The translations under genes and the position numbers were made by a program. A stretch of DNA of 64,000 nt, from the NCBI GenBank assembly GCA_028286905.1, contig JAQBQP010000002.1:309458-373457 (forward strand), written 5' to 3'. The notes below the pieces were generated by a model, which was given only the letters and a program-made list of their open reading frames with translations, had not been told where the DNA came from and made no database searches. This document shows positions 7,759 to 31,758 of the stretch, piece by piece (the first letter of the stretch is position 1; each line of letters opens with the position of its first letter). The DNA is from Candidatus Doudnabacteria bacterium (GTDB lineage Bacteria; Patescibacteriota; Doudnabacteria; UBA920; VMFF01).

Positions 7759-8022
7759 ATTTAACTAAAAATCCTGACCCGCGTCTTTGGGCCAGAATTT
7801 AGAATACGGCAGCAAAAGAAACAAGTCCTTAATGTATTTATTCCTTAATTAAATCACACTTTGAATATTTTGTCAACACTACACCCGCGAAACAAGAGAT
7901 TACTCAATATTATCTGAAGCAAAATTTGAGCCTATTCATACGGACATGTTCTTTAGCATATAGATAAGGCCGGCTTTGGCAATTAAATCGCTTAATTGGC
8001 CAGATTTAGCTAATATATAGGT

Positions 8023-8625
8023 ATGCAATTGACTACTACAGACAAAAAGCGAATAAACCAGTTTTATGGCCGTAAATTAAAAAAATTTGGACTAAAAGAC
8101 GCCCAAAGCGTGGATTGGGAAAGTAATAAAGACCAAAAGACCCGTTTTGAGATTTTATCAAAAATTGGTGATTTGAACGGTAAGAAAGTCTTAGACTTTG
8201 GCTCTGGTTTGGGCGGATTGTATGGATATCTAAGTAAAAGGTTTAAAAATATCAGCTACACTGGTATTGATGTAGTCTCTGTTTTTGTTGAGCAGTCTGC
8301 AAAGAAATATCCCAAAGCAAAGTTCGAATGCATTGAACTAAACGCAATAAAGGATAAATTTGATTACGCTTTTGCTGCGGGTTCTTTAACTTTCGATGTT
8401 GCAGGCGGCAAGAAGTATTATTTTAATCAGATTAAAGCAATGTATAAGCTGGCAAAAAAAGGCGTTGGCTTTAATATGCTGAACAAAGATTTTTTCGGTG
8501 AACATAAGGGTTATATAACTTACGATCCTTTAGAGGTTTTAGATTTTTGCAAAACTTTTGCAAAGCATGTTCAAATAATTTTTAACTATGTCGAAGGCGA
8601 GTTTACTGTTTATTTAAAAAAATAA
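8023..8625 (+). CDS. class I SAM-dependent methyltransferase
   Basis: 200 aa; VLDFGSGLGG motif I and downstream acidic motif II. Confidence 0.75.
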   Translation: MQLTTTDKKRINQFYGRKLKKFGLKDAQSVDWESNKDQKTRFEILSKIGDLNGKKVLDFGSGLGGLYGYLSKRFKNISYTGIDVVSVFVEQSAKKYPKAKFECIELNAIKDKFDYAFAAGSLTFDVAGGKKYYFNQIKAMYKLAKKGVGFNMLNKDFFGEHKGYITYDPLEVLDFCKTFAKHVQIIFNYVEGEFTVYLKK

Positions 8626-8637
8626 AATACTAGAAAT

Positions 8638-9273
8638 ATGTCAGATAATCAAACGATAATTTATATAGTTCGACACGGTCAAACTCAAATGAATACTGAA
8701 AACCGCTTACAGGGACGTGTGGATTCGCCACTGACTGAACTTGGAATCAAACAGGCGCAGGCCTTAGGTGAGAAGTTTAAAGAAATCGGATTTGATGCAA
8801 TTTATTCTTCGCCAGCGGGACGTGCTCGGGATACTGCTAAGCATTTAAAATTGGAGCGAGCTTTGGATGTCATGGTTGTAGATGATCTAGCTGAGAGATC
8901 CTTTGGCAGCAGCGAAGGTATTACTATGGAAGAATCGATGGTGTTATACAAAGATAAGCATGAGGAATACAGAGTTTTGAATACTGAGGAGCGAACAAAG
9001 TTTAAGTTTACTGAAGATAGCGAAAACGACATCGAGGTGGCGGAACGTTTTTTAAAAGCCTTGAAAACAATTGCCGAAGCAAATTATGGAAAAACACTGC
9101 TGATAGTTAGTCACGGCGGAACTTTAAGATCTGTGTTAGCAAGATTCGATCGAAATTATTATAATCGCCAAATGTACCAGATTAATAACACCGCTTGGGC
9201 AAAAATTAGTTACGACGGAGATAATTTTAAACTGTTAGAAATAGATGGAGTTGAAAAGAAAAATGATAATTAA
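8638..9273 (+). CDS. histidine phosphatase family protein (phosphoglycerate mutase-like)
   Basis: 211 aa; IYIVRHGQTQMN RHG motif, second His in VSHGGTLR. Confidence 0.8.
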   Translation: MSDNQTIIYIVRHGQTQMNTENRLQGRVDSPLTELGIKQAQALGEKFKEIGFDAIYSSPAGRARDTAKHLKLERALDVMVVDDLAERSFGSSEGITMEESMVLYKDKHEEYRVLNTEERTKFKFTEDSENDIEVAERFLKALKTIAEANYGKTLLIVSHGGTLRSVLARFDRNYYNRQMYQINNTAWAKISYDGDNFKLLEIDGVEKKNDN

Positions 9274-23630: not shown

Positions 23631-24039
23631 AGGTCAGAAGATTTTAGAATAAAAATCTTAATATCTTAATTACAAGTATATAAATAAATATTTATTTATA
23701 TAAACTATCGTTGATGAGATAAGCGTGAAGCGAGAACTACAAAGAAAGCTAAAGTATTAGTAGAAGTTAGTTATACATTGGTTATTTACAATATACCTTG
23801 TCGCATAAGCTACATTGTGCGACAAGGTAATATTATGTATATAGTACCTTTCATATACCTCCCCCATGGGCCCCAGGATGTATTAGACGTCGTAGTCGTT
23901 GAGCTCAAACTAAAACACATTGCGACGTGTTCTCGGATTATATGGTTTGGACCCTGGTTCCAATACCCGGCACGGGGCTTGTTTATACTTTAAGTAAAGA
24001 CATAAAAGTATGTAACAACCCTGGTAATTAAGATAGCTA

Positions 24040-24497: not shown

Positions 24498-24842
24498 TTA
24501 GAAAGGGATATCCTCTATTCGTATTTCGTCTTCAACAAGATCTGCTTCAGGAACTTTAACAGAGTACTTGCTTATCGCAGCCTGGTATAAACTCTCTGCT
24601 TGTTTCTTAAATTGTTCCTTATCGCTTATGAAATTATTTAATTTGTTGTACAAGTTCAGGTATATTATTTGATGTGCTTTATTGCTAAGAGATCGCTCGT
24701 CATATGGGTCCATTTCAAAATCTTCGTTAGAAGCTAAATTTAGCAAGGATGATAAATCCTCTCTAGTTATCCTGTCTATTTCAACGTAATTCTCCCCCGT
24801 TTTGTAGTAAGCTTTTCCGTTATTTATATGTAAATACTTCAT
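24498..24842 (-). CDS. hypothetical 114-aa protein, operon partner of the PHP-ATPase gene
   Basis: Start ATG 3 nt after the stop of the upstream gene (TAAATCATG); acidic, no recognisable motif. Confidence 0.5.
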   Translation of the reverse strand: MKYLHINNGKAYYKTGENYVEIDRITREDLSSLLNLASNEDFEMDPYDERSLSNKAHQIIYLNLYNKLNNFISDKEQFKKQAESLYQAAISKYSVKVPEADLVEDEIRIEDIPF

Positions 24843-24845
24843 GAT

Positions 24846-26894
24846 TTATTTTTTAAAATTATTGTACAGCTCATTTCGTAACGCGTATGCTTCCACTCCT
24901 GCTTCAAGGGTAGCGAGGAGGATTTCGTAACTATCTACCTTCTCCATCCCATCAGCAGTTTTGAATTCCTTATCCCCCGGCGATCCTGAAAATATTTTAT
25001 ACGTGTCCTTGTCTTGGAAAATTGTTCGCTTTGTATACAGAACATAATCAGGACGCATTAACATACCTACGGTATTGTTATGTGTAACTACAATTACGGG
25101 AAGCTCCTTAGAAATATCTTTGATCTCTTTGTTAACATTTTCTTTTAAAAAAATGTTGTCAAAAGAAGATTCGGGTTCATCTATCAAAAGCATCTCGTAC
25201 TGTCGGGCATCCGCCAACGACTTAAGTAAATTGAATTCTGATCTTTCGCCACCTGATACCTCCTTATCATATTGATTTAGAACCTTGTATGTCACCTTAC
25301 AAAAATATCTATATAATTCGCTTTTTTCTAACCGGTCGATATTTTTCAACTCCTCTAAAAATTGAATTGGTATATCATATTTGGAATATGCACTACTAAA
25401 TTTAACATTTTTATGACTTTCGTCAGAAAGTTCCCCCGCACCGTTGAACTTACGAGCTATTGATCTAATCTTAAACTTTCTAAAAGAGGTGTTTTCATCA
25501 ATAATAGTTTCCTTCATTACTGCGAGAGCGATCGCGTTAAATTTTTTAAATTTTTCTCGTTCTAATTTCAAATCGTAAAAGTCTATCTCATTATGTTCAA
25601 TAATTGGACTTGAGGTTCGATTTTTTAAATTTTTCTGTGTTTCGCTAATCAAATCATTTACCCAAACCTTCTTCATTCTTTCTTCTGTATCCTGGATAAA
25701 GCGCTCTTTTAAATCGTCTAAAAGAGCGGCTAGACTTTTTGGCTGTATATGTCTATTGATTATCTCCTCATAGACTTGGTCTTTCAGTAAAATTATTACT
25801 GCTGCAATTATATCCTTTAGATCTTCAGTCGAGCGGATCGGATATAGATTTTCAGTAAATAAGGCAGTGTTTGAGAATTCATCGTGTTGCTTTTGATTCA
25901 AAGCAAACTCCAATAAGGACTCAATATACCTATTTAAAATATAATTCGTCTCTCTTCTATCTATTGTTACTACGTCATTAACTACTAACTTAAACTCATC
26001 CAAATATCTTTCTCGCGTATTACTTTTTGCATTCTCAAGATTTTTTTGAAATTTTTCCTTATCGTCACTAATTAACTCAAACTGTTCTATATATTTGATA
26101 GATTTTTCGTCGATATCGTAAACCTTTTTAAGATTGTTTAATAAGTTGGTTTTACCTGAAGATCTTTCGCCTAAAACTATATTGAGCCCATTCGATAAAA
26201 TCTGTCCATCATTAAAAACCTGAAAAAAATCTTGGCTTCCTATATTAGACAAGAAAACTTTGGATTTATCCTGGAGTGCGATCTTTATAACATTCAGAGA
26301 AAGTTTTTCTGAGTTTGTTTTAATAAAGGTCTGCCTGCCCTGAAGCTCGGCGAGATTTAAGTCATGGCTTACTCGACAATCACTAAATAAAACAGGTGTT
26401 AATGGGAGGTCTTCCTTCATCAATCTGTTAAATTTTTTAGGACTGCTTACCTCACCGGTAAAAATACAGTCATTTAGTAACTCGAAGGCATGCTGGTTTA
26501 CTCTTGGTTTTTTATCGTAATGGGGAACGAGTAGATAGTCACTTAGATTTACAAATATTTCCCTTAGCTTATTTGCTTTAACAGTGTCATTATTTTGCAA
26601 TTCCGCAGTGATTAAATCACATTTTTGACTAAAATCCTCTAGGTTTATGTTTTCTGAGACAAGTAATAAATGTCCGTTTTCAAAATCAATTTCTATCCCA
26701 GGAAGAATTACCGCGTTTGGCAAATCTCCAGTTATTTGTTGGAATTGTGCTTTGTTAAATAAATTGTGGTTAGTGATGGCCACAGCATCTAATGAGAAGG
26801 AAGTAAGGTATTCTTTAAACTTATCAAGTTCAAACTCAAAATAAGCGTCTTTTTTGGTGGGTACTGTATGCACATGTAAATCGATTTTTTTCAT
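24846..26894 (-). CDS. PHP-domain phosphoesterase fused to an ABC/SMC-like ATPase (Ppl-like candidate defence protein)
   Basis: 682 aa; N-terminal IDLHVHT...AITNHN...PGIEI PHP motifs. Walker A LGERSSGKTNLL, ABC signature VSGGERSEFNLL, Walker B/D-loop MLLIDEPESSFD, H-loop VIVVTHN. About 340 aa lie between Walker A and the signature, as in SMC/RecF/OLD-type ATPases. Confidence 0.7.
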   Translation of the reverse strand: MKKIDLHVHTVPTKKDAYFEFELDKFKEYLTSFSLDAVAITNHNLFNKAQFQQITGDLPNAVILPGIEIDFENGHLLLVSENINLEDFSQKCDLITAELQNNDTVKANKLREIFVNLSDYLLVPHYDKKPRVNQHAFELLNDCIFTGEVSSPKKFNRLMKEDLPLTPVLFSDCRVSHDLNLAELQGRQTFIKTNSEKLSLNVIKIALQDKSKVFLSNIGSQDFFQVFNDGQILSNGLNIVLGERSSGKTNLLNNLKKVYDIDEKSIKYIEQFELISDDKEKFQKNLENAKSNTRERYLDEFKLVVNDVVTIDRRETNYILNRYIESLLEFALNQKQHDEFSNTALFTENLYPIRSTEDLKDIIAAVIILLKDQVYEEIINRHIQPKSLAALLDDLKERFIQDTEERMKKVWVNDLISETQKNLKNRTSSPIIEHNEIDFYDLKLEREKFKKFNAIALAVMKETIIDENTSFRKFKIRSIARKFNGAGELSDESHKNVKFSSAYSKYDIPIQFLEELKNIDRLEKSELYRYFCKVTYKVLNQYDKEVSGGERSEFNLLKSLADARQYEMLLIDEPESSFDNIFLKENVNKEIKDISKELPVIVVTHNNTVGMLMRPDYVLYTKRTIFQDKDTYKIFSGSPGDKEFKTADGMEKVDSYEILLATLEAGVEAYALRNELYNNFKK

Positions 26895-26995
26895 ATGGAG
26901 TTACGGCAAACAAAAATTACTAAACTTATTATGCTCTTTGACCATCTAATTTGCAACGATTTATTAAATTTTGATTAAATTCAAGTTTTTCCTAA

Positions 26996-27064
26996 CTCTC
27001 CCCTGTTTTAACTTACCCACAAGAAAATTGCCGTGATCGCTTGCGCTACAGTGTGCGAAACAAA
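26996..27064. repeat. about 68-nt imperfect direct repeat, copy A (upstream of the PHP-ATPase promoter)
   Basis: ctctcccctgtttt...gatcgcttgcgctacagtgtgcgaaacaaaagag is about 78% identical to copy B at 27389-27456. Confidence 0.6.
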
Positions 27065-27095
27065 AGAGTACAATATCTGAATATCGTACTCTTAC
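27065..27095 (-). terminator. Rho-independent terminator after the 65-aa ORF
   Basis: AGAGTAC-N14-GTACTCT hairpin followed by TTTTGTTT on the minus strand. Confidence 0.6.
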
Positions 27096-27118: not shown

Positions 27119-27316
27119 TCAAGGGTGTCTCCTCCTTCTGCTAGGTCCAATAGGCTCTTGGCTATGAGGCGCATGTCTAGACAACTCGACCCCTCTGCGG
27201 ATTGGGGCATATTCCTTGCGCGCCTGCTGCTCCGCTCGCCGTATCTCTTCTTGACCTTCGGGGGTATTGGGATCAGGAAATGGATACGCTTCCAAAATTT
27301 CCAAGTCGCTCGGCAT
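27119..27316 (-). CDS. small GC-rich ORF (65 aa), acidic N-terminus and basic C-terminus
   Basis: AAGGA SD 5-6 nt before the ATG; the stop is followed by hairpin AGAGTAC...GTACTCT plus a U-run on the minus strand. Local GC far above the host GC. Confidence 0.45.
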   Translation of the reverse strand: MPSDLEILEAYPFPDPNTPEGQEEIRRAEQQARKEYAPIRRGVELSRHAPHSQEPIGPSRRRRHP

Positions 27317-27388
27317 AAATTCCTTTGGTTGAGATAAATCAAGTATATTCCGAAATTTTTATAATGTCTAAAAAAGTTTTTTCTATTC

Positions 27389-27456
27389 TCTCCCCTGTTT
27401 TTAGTTGTTCACGAAAATGCCAGATCCCTTGCGCTACATTATGCAAAAAACAAAGG
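27389..27456. repeat. about 68-nt imperfect direct repeat, copy B (upstream of the 65-aa ORF promoter)
   Basis: ctctcccctgttttt...gatcccttgcgctacattatgcaaaaaacaaaggag; each copy abuts a minus-strand terminator hairpin. Confidence 0.6.
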
Positions 27457-27513: not shown

Positions 27514-28500
27514 CTACCTGTTCGCTGCGACTCGGCTTACAATGCTCAGCACTCCGGGCGGCGCCTTCACTGATTGTCCGTCGATTGCCTCGTGCAGCTG
27601 CTGCATTTGGCTCTGAGCTTTCGCGATACTACGCAACATCCGCTGCTTGTCCTTGTCGTCCCTGTGTTCAAACATCTTCTTGAACTGGGACATTGGCATG
27701 TCCATCACGATCTTGGTATCGAGCGTCAGCCGATTCAGGAAGCTCTCTACTCGGCGATAGTCATCGCTGGGACGCATCCTACGACCGTCGACCTTCGCGC
27801 CGCCTCGCAGGCTCTGTAGTTGCTGCCCGATGTAGAACCGCGCTTCCTTCAAGTTCATGTCGCTGCCGATGATGTATCGAGCCATCTGCAACTGCCGGTC
27901 GAATGGAAACGGAACCAGCATCACTGCTGTATTGACTCCCAGCTGCTGGTCTTTCGGCAATTCCGGGTTTAGCAGTGCCTGAACTCGAGAGTCTAGCTTC
28001 AGCAAGCTGAGGTGCTTGCTGACCCAAGCGCTATCTCTAGCACATAGCGAGGCGAGCTCGCCTTGGGTACAGTTACCACGGTCTTGCTGCATCTTTTGCA
28101 GACCGAGCGCGACTTCCATGACAGTCATGTCTACTCTGCCGACATTTTCGAGGAACGCATGTTCGTGCTGCTTCTCTGGACTGCGACGCTCCGAGATAAT
28201 CGCCCGCAACTTGTAGTTGGGGTCGACTGCCCCGCTTGCGCGCCAGCGGCGTTCTCCGATGTTCAACCGGAAGCGCATACCCGGGTTTTTCGCGATCTCC
28301 TCTTCGGTCAGCACACAGACCTCTATCGGAGTATGCTGGCCCGTTGTTTTGATGCTGTCTTCCAATTCTTTCAACTCTATTGGATCGAAATACTTCCGAG
28401 GCTGAGTCGGATCTCGCAGAATCTCACTGCGGTCGATCTCCAGCACCATCCCAACGACTACATTTGAGTCTGAGTCCAATGTCCGCGACTTTCTCGGCAT
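27514..28500 (-). CDS. ParB/Spo0J-family protein (ParB N-terminal nuclease-like domain plus HTH), orphan with no parA partner, GC-rich
   Basis: 328 aa; NIGERRWRASG (ParB box II GERRWRA), ENVGR...(ParB ENLQR-like), HTH TQGELASLCARDSAWVSKHLSLLKLDSRVQALL collinear with the Spo0J HTH. AGGAGG SD 6 nt upstream. GC around 58%. Confidence 0.7.
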   Translation of the reverse strand: MPRKSRTLDSDSNVVVGMVLEIDRSEILRDPTQPRKYFDPIELKELEDSIKTTGQHTPIEVCVLTEEEIAKNPGMRFRLNIGERRWRASGAVDPNYKLRAIISERRSPEKQHEHAFLENVGRVDMTVMEVALGLQKMQQDRGNCTQGELASLCARDSAWVSKHLSLLKLDSRVQALLNPELPKDQQLGVNTAVMLVPFPFDRQLQMARYIIGSDMNLKEARFYIGQQLQSLRGGAKVDGRRMRPSDDYRRVESFLNRLTLDTKIVMDMPMSQFKKMFEHRDDKDKQRMLRSIAKAQSQMQQLHEAIDGQSVKAPPGVLSIVSRVAANR

Positions 28501-28923: not shown

Positions 28924-29352
28924 TTATTCATTTAAAGCTTCAAGCATATCCTTTGCCATCTCCTGATCAGCATTTATAAGGTCCCCTAGCATCTCCTGTC
29001 TTTGTTCAAGCGTTAGCTCTGCCTGGTCATATTTTATCAAAAGATCTTGCACTGCTGGATCAACTGCCGCAGACAGCAAATTTAATCGATTAAGTTCTTC
29101 AGTCGCGGCTTGAACATAACCGATATCAGTCTTATAAACTTCGGTAACCTTAGCTATTCTTTGGCCATCCGCAAAGATGTATTTTACCGTAGGAAGTGAT
29201 TCCGCTTGGATTGCTTCTTTGAATAAAGTTAAGTCATTTTCTGAAAAGGTATTAAAAAAAGCAGTTCTAAAAAGTCCGGTTTCTGGAACAAAGGTTAAAA
29301 TGGCTCCGATTTTTAAATTATCTTGAAAAATAACAATGACTTTATTTTGCAC
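28924..29352 (-). CDS. hypothetical protein (142 aa), 11-nt overlap with the upstream HExxH gene
   Basis: ORF with host-like AT content; no recognisable motif. Confidence 0.4.
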   Translation of the reverse strand: MQNKVIVIFQDNLKIGAILTFVPETGLFRTAFFNTFSENDLTLFKEAIQAESLPTVKYIFADGQRIAKVTEVYKTDIGYVQAATEELNRLNLLSAAVDPAVQDLLIKYDQAELTLEQRQEMLGDLINADQEMAKDMLEALNE

Positions 29353-30340
29353 TGTGCACCTTTCGCTTAGATTTTTGTTTAGGCTGCACTATTTCGGAAC
29401 GGCGGCGGTTAGCTTTAGCCCAATCAAAATTCGGGTCATGCTTTTTTATGTAAGCTCGAAAAAGATCTCGATCCGCTTTTGGAATTGTGTAAATTTCATT
29501 AGTTAAAACCTTAGAGCCTACTTCTGCAAAGTATTCAGTTGCTTTATACTGTAGTTCTTTTTGCTTATCCGGATTGTTTATGCTTTCAACATAATCTGAC
29601 TTGTATCTGTCAGGTGATTTAACTCGTTGAATAATATCTTGTAAAAGTCGTAGTCTTTCTTCGGTGGGAACGGACCTTGCCCCATACCAATCCGAATTAT
29701 GCCAAATTTCGTGTAGAAGAGTAGAATTAATAATTCTGGAAGCGCTAAATGATTTGGTTGCTGAAATTTTAATCTCTTTAGTGCTGTAGTCTGCTACTCC
29801 ATCCGCATTTTTTTCTTCCAAATTATATTCTGAACTCATAAGCAGGTTCTGCTCAAAGGAAATAGAGTAAGTATTTTCTTCTAAGAATTTAGGTATGGTC
29901 TGCTCCATGACCGCAGAAATTTGTTGATTATTAACTGCCAGGGATTCGAAGCCAGTAACATGGACTTTGCGGTCTTCGCCTTCAGCTTTTATTTTTCTAT
30001 TTCCGCTCCATTCACGTATAATGTGCATATTTTCCAAATAATCGATCAGAGCAGTCCCTACTTCCTGACGCAATGAATCAGCTAATGGCTGTATGTCTCT
30101 ATTTATGCCTTTTTCATAAGCTTGCGCTGTTGCCGATCTCAGCACTTCACCAATTATTGGAAATTTTTCTATTCCTTGTTTCGCGGACCAAGTTCCGCTA
30201 ATTTCAAACAATATGTAAAACATGAGCCTGCCATGGCGGCCTAGGTGCTTAGTCGCAAATTTATTTAGACGATTGTTTAAATTATTAGCCTTATCGGCTC
30301 TTGAAGGTTCGTAATTTTCAGGAGAATATCTTTCTGGCAT
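29342..30340 (-). CDS. hypothetical protein with an HExxH zinc-metallopeptidase-like motif
   Basis: 332 aa; LLHEIWHNSDWYG contains HEIWH; no other family assignment possible by eye. Confidence 0.4.
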   Translation of the reverse strand: MPERYSPENYEPSRADKANNLNNRLNKFATKHLGRHGRLMFYILFEISGTWSAKQGIEKFPIIGEVLRSATAQAYEKGINRDIQPLADSLRQEVGTALIDYLENMHIIREWSGNRKIKAEGEDRKVHVTGFESLAVNNQQISAVMEQTIPKFLEENTYSISFEQNLLMSSEYNLEEKNADGVADYSTKEIKISATKSFSASRIINSTLLHEIWHNSDWYGARSVPTEERLRLLQDIIQRVKSPDRYKSDYVESINNPDKQKELQYKATEYFAEVGSKVLTNEIYTIPKADRDLFRAYIKKHDPNFDWAKANRRRSEIVQPKQKSKRKVHSAK

Positions 30341-30375: not shown

Positions 30376-30404
30376 TTGCTAGGAAGCTTTAGTTTTGGTA
30401 TAAT
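30376..30404 (+). promoter_or_regulatory. sigma70-type promoter with an extended -10 (TTGCTA-N17-TGgTATAAT) for the 191-aa GC-rich gene
   Basis: -35 TTGCTA at 30376-30381, TG at 30396-30397, -10 TATAAT at 30399-30404. A 9/10 inverted repeat ATTCGTAAGG-N6-CCCTACGAAT lies at 30424-30452, between the promoter and the RBS. Confidence 0.6.
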
Positions 30405-30467
30405 TGATAATCGGTTCTATTCGTAAGGATATTCCCTACGAATCCCTCAAACCTCAAGAGGTGGCAT

Positions 30468-31043
30468 ATGCCTGTTTCGTGGCAAGTTATGCTCGTTGCT
30501 GTTTTGGTCATTTGGCCCGCAACCAAGTTGTACGATCGTTGGCAGCGCACTCAAGAAGTAAAGGAAAGCGAGCCGATTCCGAGTCCGGATGTCGTGGCGG
30601 TCTTCCGGAAATCCGAGGCTTTGCAGGTGTATGCCTGCAAACATTCCGGCCCGGAAACCTTTTCCATCTGGATCTATGGCCAGGAGCAGCAGTATTCAAG
30701 TGCGCCGCAGGCAGACCCGCTCTCACTGGTAACCTATACCACAAAGTGCCCGGAGTGCCTGCTGCGATCTTCCGAACAGTACATTCGGCGCTGCGCTGTT
30801 TGCGGCGGCCCGATCCTCGCTGGGGACAACGTTTCACTTCATGAGACCGCCGAGGAAGGTCTGCGTCTGGACATCGCCACCGAAGTGGCGCCGATGCAAG
30901 TTCTGGGTTGTGCCAAGCAGGAGTGCTGGCAAGGCGCGAACCTGCACGTTGGAATCTGGGATGGAGAGAAGGTTGTTCCATCTTATGGCGGTGGGACATA
31001 CAAAGAAACGCTCCTGGCGTTTCTCGCTACAGCCATTACATAG
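30468..31043 (+). CDS. GC-rich hypothetical membrane-anchored protein with a Cys-rich (CPEC...CAVC) zinc-ribbon-like segment
   Basis: 191 aa; strong SD AAGAGGTGG 4 nt before the ATG; N-terminal TM helix; overlapping ORFs on the other strand and in other frames are Arg-rich antisense artefacts. Confidence 0.55.
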   Translation: MPVSWQVMLVAVLVIWPATKLYDRWQRTQEVKESEPIPSPDVVAVFRKSEALQVYACKHSGPETFSIWIYGQEQQYSSAPQADPLSLVTYTTKCPECLLRSSEQYIRRCAVCGGPILAGDNVSLHETAEEGLRLDIATEVAPMQVLGCAKQECWQGANLHVGIWDGEKVVPSYGGGTYKETLLAFLATAIT

Positions 31044-31151
31044 GAGGAGTTTGCCGAGCATATAAAACATTGGTCGAAGTTGATCCAAACAAATGAGAGC
31101 CTGACCAGCTCTCTTTTCTTTTATTTCTTTATTATTTTTTTCAAACTAAAA

Positions 31152-31179
31152 GGAGCTGAATGCAATTGCAAGCAGCTCC
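31152..31179 (-). terminator. Rho-independent terminator after the two-gene GC-rich minus-strand operon
   Basis: GGAGCTG-N14-CAGCTCC hairpin followed by TTTTAGTTTG on the minus strand. Confidence 0.55.
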
Positions 31180-31208
31180 TCGTAGGTTGTAGTTCACACA
31201 CTTCTTGG

Positions 31209-31445
31209 CTAGTCCTCCCAGCTAATTCCGCTGGAGAGGCAGAGGCGGTGGGTTTCCACTTGCTCTGCCGTCATCTCCAAACGAAGCGGGAGCAAAGGTC
31301 GTGGCTGAACCTTAGGGGCGTAGAGCGAGCAGGATGTGTTACTGCACGGCTCGGAAATCAGCCGGGTCTGACCACATCTACTGCACAAGGCGCTCCTGAT
31401 GATGTGGTCATCGAAGGCCGCGATGCCCGTCAGGACCGCTTTCAT
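31209..31445 (-). CDS. GC-rich small Cys-containing protein (78 aa), translationally coupled to the upstream gene
   Basis: Start ATG overlaps the stop of the preceding gene (GAATGAAAGCG: ATGA overlap); followed by a terminator. Confidence 0.4.
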   Translation of the reverse strand: MKAVLTGIAAFDDHIIRSALCSRCGQTRLISEPCSNTSCSLYAPKVQPRPLLPLRLEMTAEQVETHRLCLSSGISWED

Positions 31446-31633
31446 TCGAACGGCAGCGGTGAGGCGCAGTGAGCACACTTCGCGCCATCGGGGGTCTGTT
31501 GACGACAGTTGCCGCACTGGATCTCCGGCCGCTGCGAAGCCGTCCGACTCACCGGCTCGGACGCTGGCCGTCCATTCGGAATCCGACTCGTCGAACGCAC
31601 GATCCTGGGTCCTTCATGCGAGGTTTCGGTCAT
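31442..31633 (-). CDS. GC-rich small zinc-ribbon protein (63 aa, C-terminal CGNC...CAHC)
   Basis: SD AGAGAGGG 5 nt before the ATG (MTETSHEG...); two CxxC pairs at the C-terminus. Confidence 0.45.
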   Translation of the reverse strand: MTETSHEGPRIVRSTSRIPNGRPASEPVSRTASQRPEIQCGNCRQQTPDGAKCAHCASPLPFE

Positions 31634-31741
31634 AGTGCCCTCTCTGGCCTGGTTGTTGTGAACTATTGATATCCCCCTGTGACTTGCACTTTCGTTTACT
31701 TTCTTGATTGTGCAATAAATCACGGAATAGTTCAAGCCCCT

Positions 31742-31758
31742 TTACTCCCCTGGCTCTA
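31742..31758. repeat. right copy of the island-bounding imperfect direct repeat, overlapping the PspC gene's 3' end
   Basis: TTACTCCCCTGGCTCTA compared with 24040-24058. Confidence 0.4.

Follow-up and report, generated by a model that had tools for sequence, protein, structure and literature searches.

We analysed a stretch of 64,000 nucleotides from a genome of Candidatus Doudnabacteria (Patescibacteria; assembly GCA_028286905.1, contig JAQBQP010000002.1, positions 309,458 to 373,457 of the forward strand), which we refer to as the window. Two adjacent genes on its minus strand encode a 682-residue protein with a PHP domain and an ABC-type ATPase (A) and an acidic protein of 114 residues (B). 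A and B are identical to the proteins JWO40_583 and JWO40_582, respectively, of a Candidatus Doudnabacteria metagenome-assembled genome (MAG). An earlier note on this DNA (the original prediction) had proposed that the two genes form a Ppl-like anti-phage operon. Both open reading frames (ORFs) lie where that note had placed them, with B starting 3 nt past the stop codon of A.

The pair matches a defence candidate that is already in PADLOC-DB v2. A matches PDC-M49A (PDLC04680) with E = 2.2e-232, and residues 1-681 align to positions 1-673 of the 674 in the profile. B matches PDC-M49B (PDLC04682) with E = 4.7e-31 (residues 1-94 to positions 1-95 of 97). The order that defines PDC-M49, with A followed by B, adjacent and on the same strand, is found in the window. 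The PDC systems are 145 phage defence candidates, which were chosen from genes embedded in BREX, DISARM, or type I restriction-modification (RM) operons (bioRxiv 10.1101/2024.01.29.577857). Payne, Hughes, Fineran and Jackson (2024) called this selection "guilt-by-embedding", and they excluded known systems. Their supplementary table of cassettes lists both FAM_00021>>FAM_01695 and FAM_00021>>FAM_02682 as 'Assign as candidate PDC-M49', so a PHP-ATPase with a small second gene had already been catalogued. The pair is therefore not the "undescribed variant" that the original prediction took it for, and the PADLOC search that it recommended names PDC-M49 instead of a new variant of Ppl.

Judged by its sequence, the window locus is a member of PDC-M49 and a new copy of it in a Candidatus Doudnabacteria genome. 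It has the same full-length matches, gene order, and adjacency as the catalogued candidate, with no structural difference. It comes from a Patescibacteria MAG, outside the RefSeq set that was used to define the candidate. Within the family, the copies from the Patescibacteria (candidate phyla radiation, CPR) clade have their genes 1-4 nt apart, instead of overlapping by 20 nt, and their B has an extra acidic tail. The features of the locus are:

24846-26894, minus strand: PDC-M49A, 682 amino acids, PHP phosphoesterase and ABC/SMC-type ATPase (coordinates include the stop codon)
26250-26894, minus strand: PHP domain of A, residues 1-215, with putative metal ligands H7, H9, D16, H43, E68, H75, H125, and D172
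26070-26249, minus strand: N-terminal half of the ATPase head, residues 216-275, with the Walker A motif (G242-T249) and the Q-loop (Q271)
25515-26069, minus strand: helical insert, residues 276-460, about 185 amino acids, with its longest helix at 385-425 (DSSP of the AlphaFold2 model)
25050-25514, minus strand: C-terminal half of the ATPase head, residues 461-615, with SGGER at 547, the Walker B/D-loop LLIDEPESSFD at 569, and the H-loop (H605)
24849-25049, minus strand: C-terminal beta/helix extension of A, residues 616-682 (DSSP of the AlphaFold2 model)
24498-24842, minus strand: PDC-M49B, 114 amino acids, acidic partner
26928-26956, minus strand: sigma-70-like promoter match, TTGCAA-17-CATAAT, 34 nt upstream of A's ATG (weak consensus match only)

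We then examined the domains of A. Its conservation and its AlphaFold2 model are based on 78 homologues that are 44-61% identical to it; the model has a mean predicted local distance difference test (pLDDT) of 88.4 and a predicted template modelling score of 0.71. All the motifs that the original prediction listed are there: DLHVHT (residue 5), AITNHN (39), PGIEI (65), GERSSGKT (242), SGGER (547), LLIDEPESSFD (569), and VVTHN (602). These motifs, their conservation, and the model all bear out the proposed architecture of a PHP domain joined to a complete ABC-type ATPase.

In the PHP domain, H7, H9, H43, E68, H125, and D172 are invariant among the homologues, and D16 and H75 are kept in at least 90% of them. 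A thus has the metal-ligand motifs of the PHP superfamily (HxH, D, H, E, H, H, D), and its model has the distorted TIM-barrel fold of PHP proteins. The usual terminal DxH of PHP enzymes is replaced by D172-x-R174, which is invariant in PDC-M49A homologues. A itself had no match to PF02811 at E ≤ 0.01; homologues that are 44-48% identical to it do have precomputed matches to this family. The PHP domain alone had no match among PDB sequences, and in model comparisons it is structurally nearest to the DNA endonuclease EndoQ and to other PHP nucleases and phosphoesterases. The domain is 13-18% identical in sequence to EndoQ, RNase AM/YciV, and the PolX and PolC PHP exonucleases; it differs from them in being fused to an ATPase and in having Arg174 instead of the last histidine.

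The ATPase motifs occur in the canonical order, and all of them are invariant: Walker A (242), Q-loop (271), signature (547), Walker B (569-573), D-loop (574-579), and H-loop (605). At the level of single residues, G242, R244, S245, G247, K248, and Q271 in the first half of the head and S547-E550, D572, E573, and H605 in the second half do not vary. Between the Walker A motif and the signature there are 297 residues (250-546), which is fewer than the roughly 340 that had been proposed. About 185 of these (276-460) form an extra helical insert, and the remainder is ordinary ABC-fold sequence in the model. As modelled, the insert is a short arm or bundle with helices of at most 41 residues, and not a hinged SMC coiled coil. 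Pfam's ABC_tran scored 23.1 bits, slightly under its cutoff, and searches of PDB sequences with the whole of A or with a profile gave only generic C-terminal matches to ABC ATPases. With Foldseek, the best matches of the head were JetC (from Wadjet), RecN, MukB, and the heads of cohesin and condensin; the likeness to SMC proteins is limited to the head (TM 0.13-0.28). The C-terminal extension resembles the C-terminus of the Spaf_1101 family ATPases, going by a profile match (NCBIfam NF045781, E = 7e-6, residues 566-680 of A to positions 735-835 of 836). Because the catalytic residues of both domains are invariant in the 78 homologues, both the PHP and the ATPase activities of A appear to be under selection.

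B is small and acidic, with a predicted pI of 4.8 in the window (the family has a median pI of 4.9 and a median charge of -7). Its AlphaFold2 model (pLDDT 85) and the alignment show three short strands (residues 2-21), a helix (27-37), an invariant motif, and a long helix (55-93). The invariant motif in the alignment is DFEMD..Y...N.AHQIIY. A disordered acidic tail (98-114) is present only in the Patescibacteria clade. A search for PDB folds with the model of B found no match (the best had E = 1.4), and none of the families in Pfam, NCBIfam, and PHROGs matched B. Searching 1.84 billion representative proteins with a profile yielded 447 relatives of B, and the best 150 of these are all stand-alone proteins of 65-167 amino acids.

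Is B really a partner of A? In a collection of 185,579 genomes (one per species), we found relatives of A in 339, and we examined the best 80 of these loci. In 77 of the 80, the ORF directly after A matches the window's B (phmmer, E from 4e-34 to 2e-13), and with tblastn the count becomes 78; the loci span more than 10 phyla. One of the two loci without a standard B is on a sequence (L052) that ends 100 nt after A, and the other (L028) carries a partial B. Starting from homologues of B gives the same picture, with a PHP protein of about 670 residues directly upstream. Furthermore, the pairwise identities of A and of B are strongly correlated (Pearson 0.88; Mantel r 0.88, 0 of 999 permutations), so the two genes are inherited as a unit. 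B is essentially an obligate partner of A, as the original prediction had suspected; the co-occurrence analysis that it proposed finds B conserved next to A from either direction.

All-against-all clustering of the flanking ORFs recovers only A and B as conserved across neighbourhoods, which rules out a conserved third gene. We also considered a 65-aa ORF (26647-26844, plus strand) as a third component. This ORF is antisense within A and has no conserved counterpart among the clustered flanking ORFs, so it is a shadow ORF and we rejected it.

In L028, which is from a Mucilaginibacter MAG, a 239-aa ORF after A (8000-8716) joins the first 44 or so residues of B to a winged-helix (Csa3/CasR-like) region. 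This ORF is either a disrupted B or a natural fusion of B to a winged-helix domain. Since the first 44 or so residues are what it keeps, it hints that the N-terminal sheet is the part of B that matters for A.

The junction of the two genes in the window (24840-24851, minus strand) reads TAA ATC ATG, with a spacer of 3 nt, and B is in the same frame as A. There is no purine-rich Shine-Dalgarno run upstream of B's ATG at this junction. B starts within A in 63 of the 78 loci, with its ATG 20 nt ahead of A's stop codon. In the Patescibacteria clade, including the window, the gap is +1 to +4 nt. Given the tight or overlapping junctions and the lack of a Shine-Dalgarno-like run before B, the translation of B is probably coupled to that of A. 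Promoter-like sites in the region around A are not enriched relative to shuffled sequences.

The distribution of PDC-M49 is patchy. The 339 genomes with relatives of A are about 0.2% of the species examined, and the hosts include Patescibacteria, Bacteroidota, Alpha-, Beta-, Gamma-, and Deltaproteobacteria, Planctomycetota, Omnitrophota, Elusimicrobiota, Firmicutes, Spirochaetia, Chloroflexi, Nitrospirales, and Fibrobacteria. We also found 61 plasmid records with PDC-M49 (45 from Enterococcus, 9 from Staphylococcus, and 4 from Rhizobium), and 48 of these plasmids are mobilisable or conjugative. One of them is pTEF2 from Enterococcus faecalis (NZ_CP046110.1, 27573-29898; locus L081), where the genes (proteins WP_002367824.1 and WP_002367825.1) are annotated as 'histidinol-phosphatase' and 'hypothetical protein'. 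(The former is a mis-annotation.) The pTEF2 pair lies amid Tn552-like transposition genes, resolvases, a gene of an abortive-infection family, and a RelE/ParE toxin. A tblastn search of 50,697 phage records found no PDC-M49, so the system is not phage-borne in that collection.

Among 141 proteins encoded immediately next to the pair, the commonest Pfam families were ResIII (6), DEAD (5), Methylase_S (4), and Helicase_C (4), followed by DUF2130, YgjP-like, EcoEI_R_C, and HSDR_N (3 each). In other words, parts of type I and type III restriction systems are the commonest immediate neighbours. In three loci (L007, L008, and L010, from Chitinophagaceae, Sediminibacterium, and Bacteroidia), the A-B pair separates hsdS from hsdR in a type I RM operon, which is the embedded arrangement by which the PDC systems were nominated. 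The signal from defence genes nearby is modest but genuine. The window's own pair has a G+C content of 0.31-0.35 versus about 0.38 for the genome, and it lies in a stretch of mosaic composition that also holds an orphan ParB-like gene (0.55), a DUF559-like ORF, and a small GIY-YIG gene. The patchy spread, the carriage on plasmids, the varied neighbourhoods, the embedding in RM operons, and the atypical G+C content together indicate a mobile accessory module and not a housekeeping gene. The original prediction had viewed the locus as a mobile anti-phage candidate in this sense, and the patchiness, plasmids, and RM neighbours make that plausible.

How does PDC-M49 relate to Ppl, to which the pair had been likened and which is reportedly due to Gao et al. 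2020? In the PADLOC search of A, no Ppl model matched at E ≤ 10. (We take PADLOC-DB v2 to include such a model.) Generic ABC-ATPase defence models did match A weakly: mad3 (4e-6), AriA (2e-4), and mad8 (9e-4). A also has partial similarity to the TrlF family (NF045780), with residues 3-384 aligning to positions 7-459 of 944 (E = 9e-18; 64.4 bits versus a cutoff of 350). A literature search on TrlF returned only unrelated acronyms. Ppl has been described as one gene for an ATPase with a PHP domain (PMC11482910). A more recent description makes it an NTP-inhibited 3'-5' exonuclease on single-stranded DNA that senses 3'-OH ends (PMC12904381; NTP stands for nucleoside triphosphate), and a study of it by Xu et al. 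(Mol Cell 2026) is cited in PMC13434339. Like PDC-M49A, Ppl has a PHP phosphoesterase and an NTPase on one chain, and by analogy the two systems may share the logic of a nuclease that is restrained by nucleotides (PMC12904381). Unlike Ppl, PDC-M49 has an obligate second gene, and the ATPase of A is an ABC/SMC-type head with a signature motif. Given the profile results, the likeness that the original prediction saw holds for domain composition, within a loose superfamily of PHP-ATPases, and not for family membership; for Ppl, this comparison draws on profiles and published descriptions.

Other defence systems share different parts of this anatomy. In Gabija (GajA), Septu (PtuAB), PARIS (AriAB), and the mads system (mad3 and mad8), a nuclease is likewise coupled to an ABC-type ATPase whose inserted helical region serves for dimerisation or as an arm, and the short helical arm of A is like those of RecF, GajA, or PtuA-type ATPases. 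In those systems, however, the nuclease is TOPRIM or HNH and the second gene encodes a helicase or a nuclease, whereas A carries a PHP domain in cis at its N-terminus and B is a fold orphan of about 100 residues. A had no TOPRIM, GajA, or OLD match in Pfam, PADLOC, or NCBIfam, which leaves it outside the OLD/Gabija GajA class. Among Wadjet JetC, Lamassu LmuB, RecN, and Rad50-Mre11/SbcCD, the head of A is nearest to JetC and RecN (and to MukB), and its combination of an ATPase head with a phosphoesterase nuclease echoes Rad50-Mre11. But SMC proteins proper (SMC, MukB, JetC, and LmuB) have a long coiled coil and a hinge, which A lacks (its insert is about 185 residues and its longest helix 41). 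PDC-M49 also has no kleisin or KITE genes, unlike SMC-like complexes, and its nuclease fold is PHP instead of the calcineurin-like or TOPRIM folds of SMC-like defence and repair complexes.

Several other features of the window are worth recording. The neighbours that the original prediction had named are present: a GIY-YIG protein (5e-17), a protein with ParB_N and HTH_ParB, and a weak DUF559 match (all from Pfam). The ParB-like protein (27514-28500, 328 aa) is nearly an orphan: 5.8 billion proteins include a single other relative, at 30% identity. Its gene has a G+C content of 0.52-0.55, as compared to about 0.38 for the genome, and by its composition it looks like a recent foreign acquisition.

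Between this gene and A there is a direct repeat of about 80 nt (26986-27065 and 27378-27453, 79% identical), with the cores TGTAGCGCAAGsGATC and AAAACAGGGGAGAG. The window has just two copies, as compared with a chance expectation of 0.03-0.06. Read on the minus strand, both copies come after a terminator-like hairpin and ahead of the start of a gene, which is PDC-M49A for one and a 65-aa ORF (27119-27316, minus strand) for the other; the cassette between the copies is about 390 nt. The repeat may reflect the duplication of a promoter or leader, or else be a scar left by an insertion. The gene-poor gap of about 960 nt that separates B from the GIY-YIG gene holds a strong 15-bp hairpin (23794-23829), which is 65% identical to a part of this repeat.

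Further along, a 332-aa ORF (29342-30340) contains a HEIWH (HExxH-like) motif and overlaps the start of the ORF at 28924-29352 by 11 nt. It had no match in Pfam or PADLOC, and only a weak match to a function-unassigned family in PHROGs. Next to it, a 1.3-kb region (30400-31750) with a G+C content of 0.50-0.61 has many short overlapping ORFs on both strands and no convincing gene. A scan of this region and of the leader region against Rfam gave only a sub-threshold ctRNA-like match. The region may be what is left of a foreign insert, or it may encode an RNA that has escaped recognition.

Returning to PDC-M49, we think that the pair is probably a defence module against phages or other invading DNA, and we hold the mechanistic details that follow less firmly. 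A would combine a nuclease of the PHP fold, dependent on metal, with an ABC/SMC-type head that has a short helical arm. ABC heads form dimers with ATP between them, and control over the nuclease would come from the nucleotide state of the ATPase, either via ATP-driven dimerisation of the heads or via occupancy by NTPs. Such control would confine the nuclease to foreign or abnormal DNA, or to times when infection lowers the nucleotide pools. The fusion of such a head to a PHP domain suggests nucleotide gating, and so does the analogy to Ppl, Septu, and QatD, which are reported to be NTP-inhibited nucleases, with NTPs restraining the nuclease until infection frees it (PMC13434339, PMC12904381). 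B, made by translational coupling, would most likely bind A. As B is stoichiometrically coupled to A, acidic, and co-evolving with it, the simplest role for B would be in regulation or sensing, as a subunit that holds A inactive or directs A to its target.

A bolder version, which we consider unlikely, is that B is a new type of regulatory subunit: an acidic, fold-orphan lid or decoy over A's DNA-binding surface or its helical arm. A phage factor or DNA ends would displace or titrate B, and this would switch on an EndoQ-like PHP endonuclease.

Several observations count against a role in defence or against our account of it. PDC-M49 remains a computational candidate whose anti-phage activity is a prediction, our literature search found no paper whose text names it, and most phage defence candidates await validation (PMC12988326). 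The role given to B is a guess, as no fold or domain can be recognised in it. Since the final canonical histidine of the PHP site is an invariant arginine (Arg174), the metal stoichiometry and the activity of A may differ from those of textbook PHP enzymes. Defence genes are a minority of the immediate neighbours (about 6-10 of the 141), and except for the weak DUF559/mREase-like neighbour and the GIY-YIG neighbour, the window lacks the classical marks of a defence island.

The tight coupling and co-evolution of the two genes would also fit a toxin-antitoxin-like addiction module that stabilises plasmids or genomic islands. In that case the toxin would be the nuclease A, and B would be a labile antitoxin that blocks it, with any effect on phages being secondary. 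B is small and acidic enough for this, and the pair is often found on plasmids and near transposons and other toxin-antitoxin or abortive-infection genes. Yet for a type II antitoxin it would be unusual to be encoded downstream of its partner and to lack a DNA-binding domain, as B does, and A is a regulated ATPase of 680 residues and not a minimal toxin. We view an addiction module as quite unlikely, and it would overlap with abortive-infection defence instead of excluding it. In another reading, A would be a factor for DNA repair or recombination, either a single-chain analogue of Mre11-Rad50/SbcCD or an EndoQ-type processor of lesions. Its SMC-like head would sense ends or lesions, the PHP domain would trim them, and B would be an accessory. 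However, housekeeping repair genes do not show the distribution and mobility of PDC-M49, which is in roughly 0.2% of species scattered over phyla, is carried by mobilisable and conjugative plasmids, and has wholly variable neighbourhoods, including the type I RM embedding by which Payne et al. selected it. A repair function thus strikes us as very unlikely.

The view in the original prediction would make A a divergent but true member of Ppl that acquired a partner. The two domain types do occur on one polypeptide in both, and the N-terminal 384 residues of A are homologous to the TrlF family of PHP-ATPases. But 64 bits is far from TrlF's cutoff of 350, and no Ppl model matched A in a search that was sensitive enough to detect mad3, AriA, and mad8. 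Furthermore, B adjoins A in 78 of 80 loci while Ppl is a single gene, and the curators of PADLOC kept PDC-M49 apart after excluding known systems. Membership in Ppl seems highly improbable to us. A defence module that is distinct from Ppl remains our preferred reading.

What does the window add? It extends a widespread but uncharacterised candidate defence family with an instance from the Patescibacteria (Candidatus Doudnabacteria). It also sharpens the picture of the family, which has an obligate and co-evolving partner, no third gene, an EndoQ-like PHP domain, and an SMC/RecN-like head. Because familiar clinical plasmids such as pTEF2 of E. faecalis carry PDC-M49, there is a tractable experimental model for it. 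If validated, PDC-M49 would be another immune module that combines a nuclease and an NTPase, with an unusual PHP effector and an uncharacterised regulatory subunit, and it would not open a new category. If B does turn out to be a lid or decoy, then PDC-M49 would be a mechanistically distinct class of defence with a dedicated protein that senses the trigger, and it would be active in hosts that range from the Patescibacteria to the enterococci.

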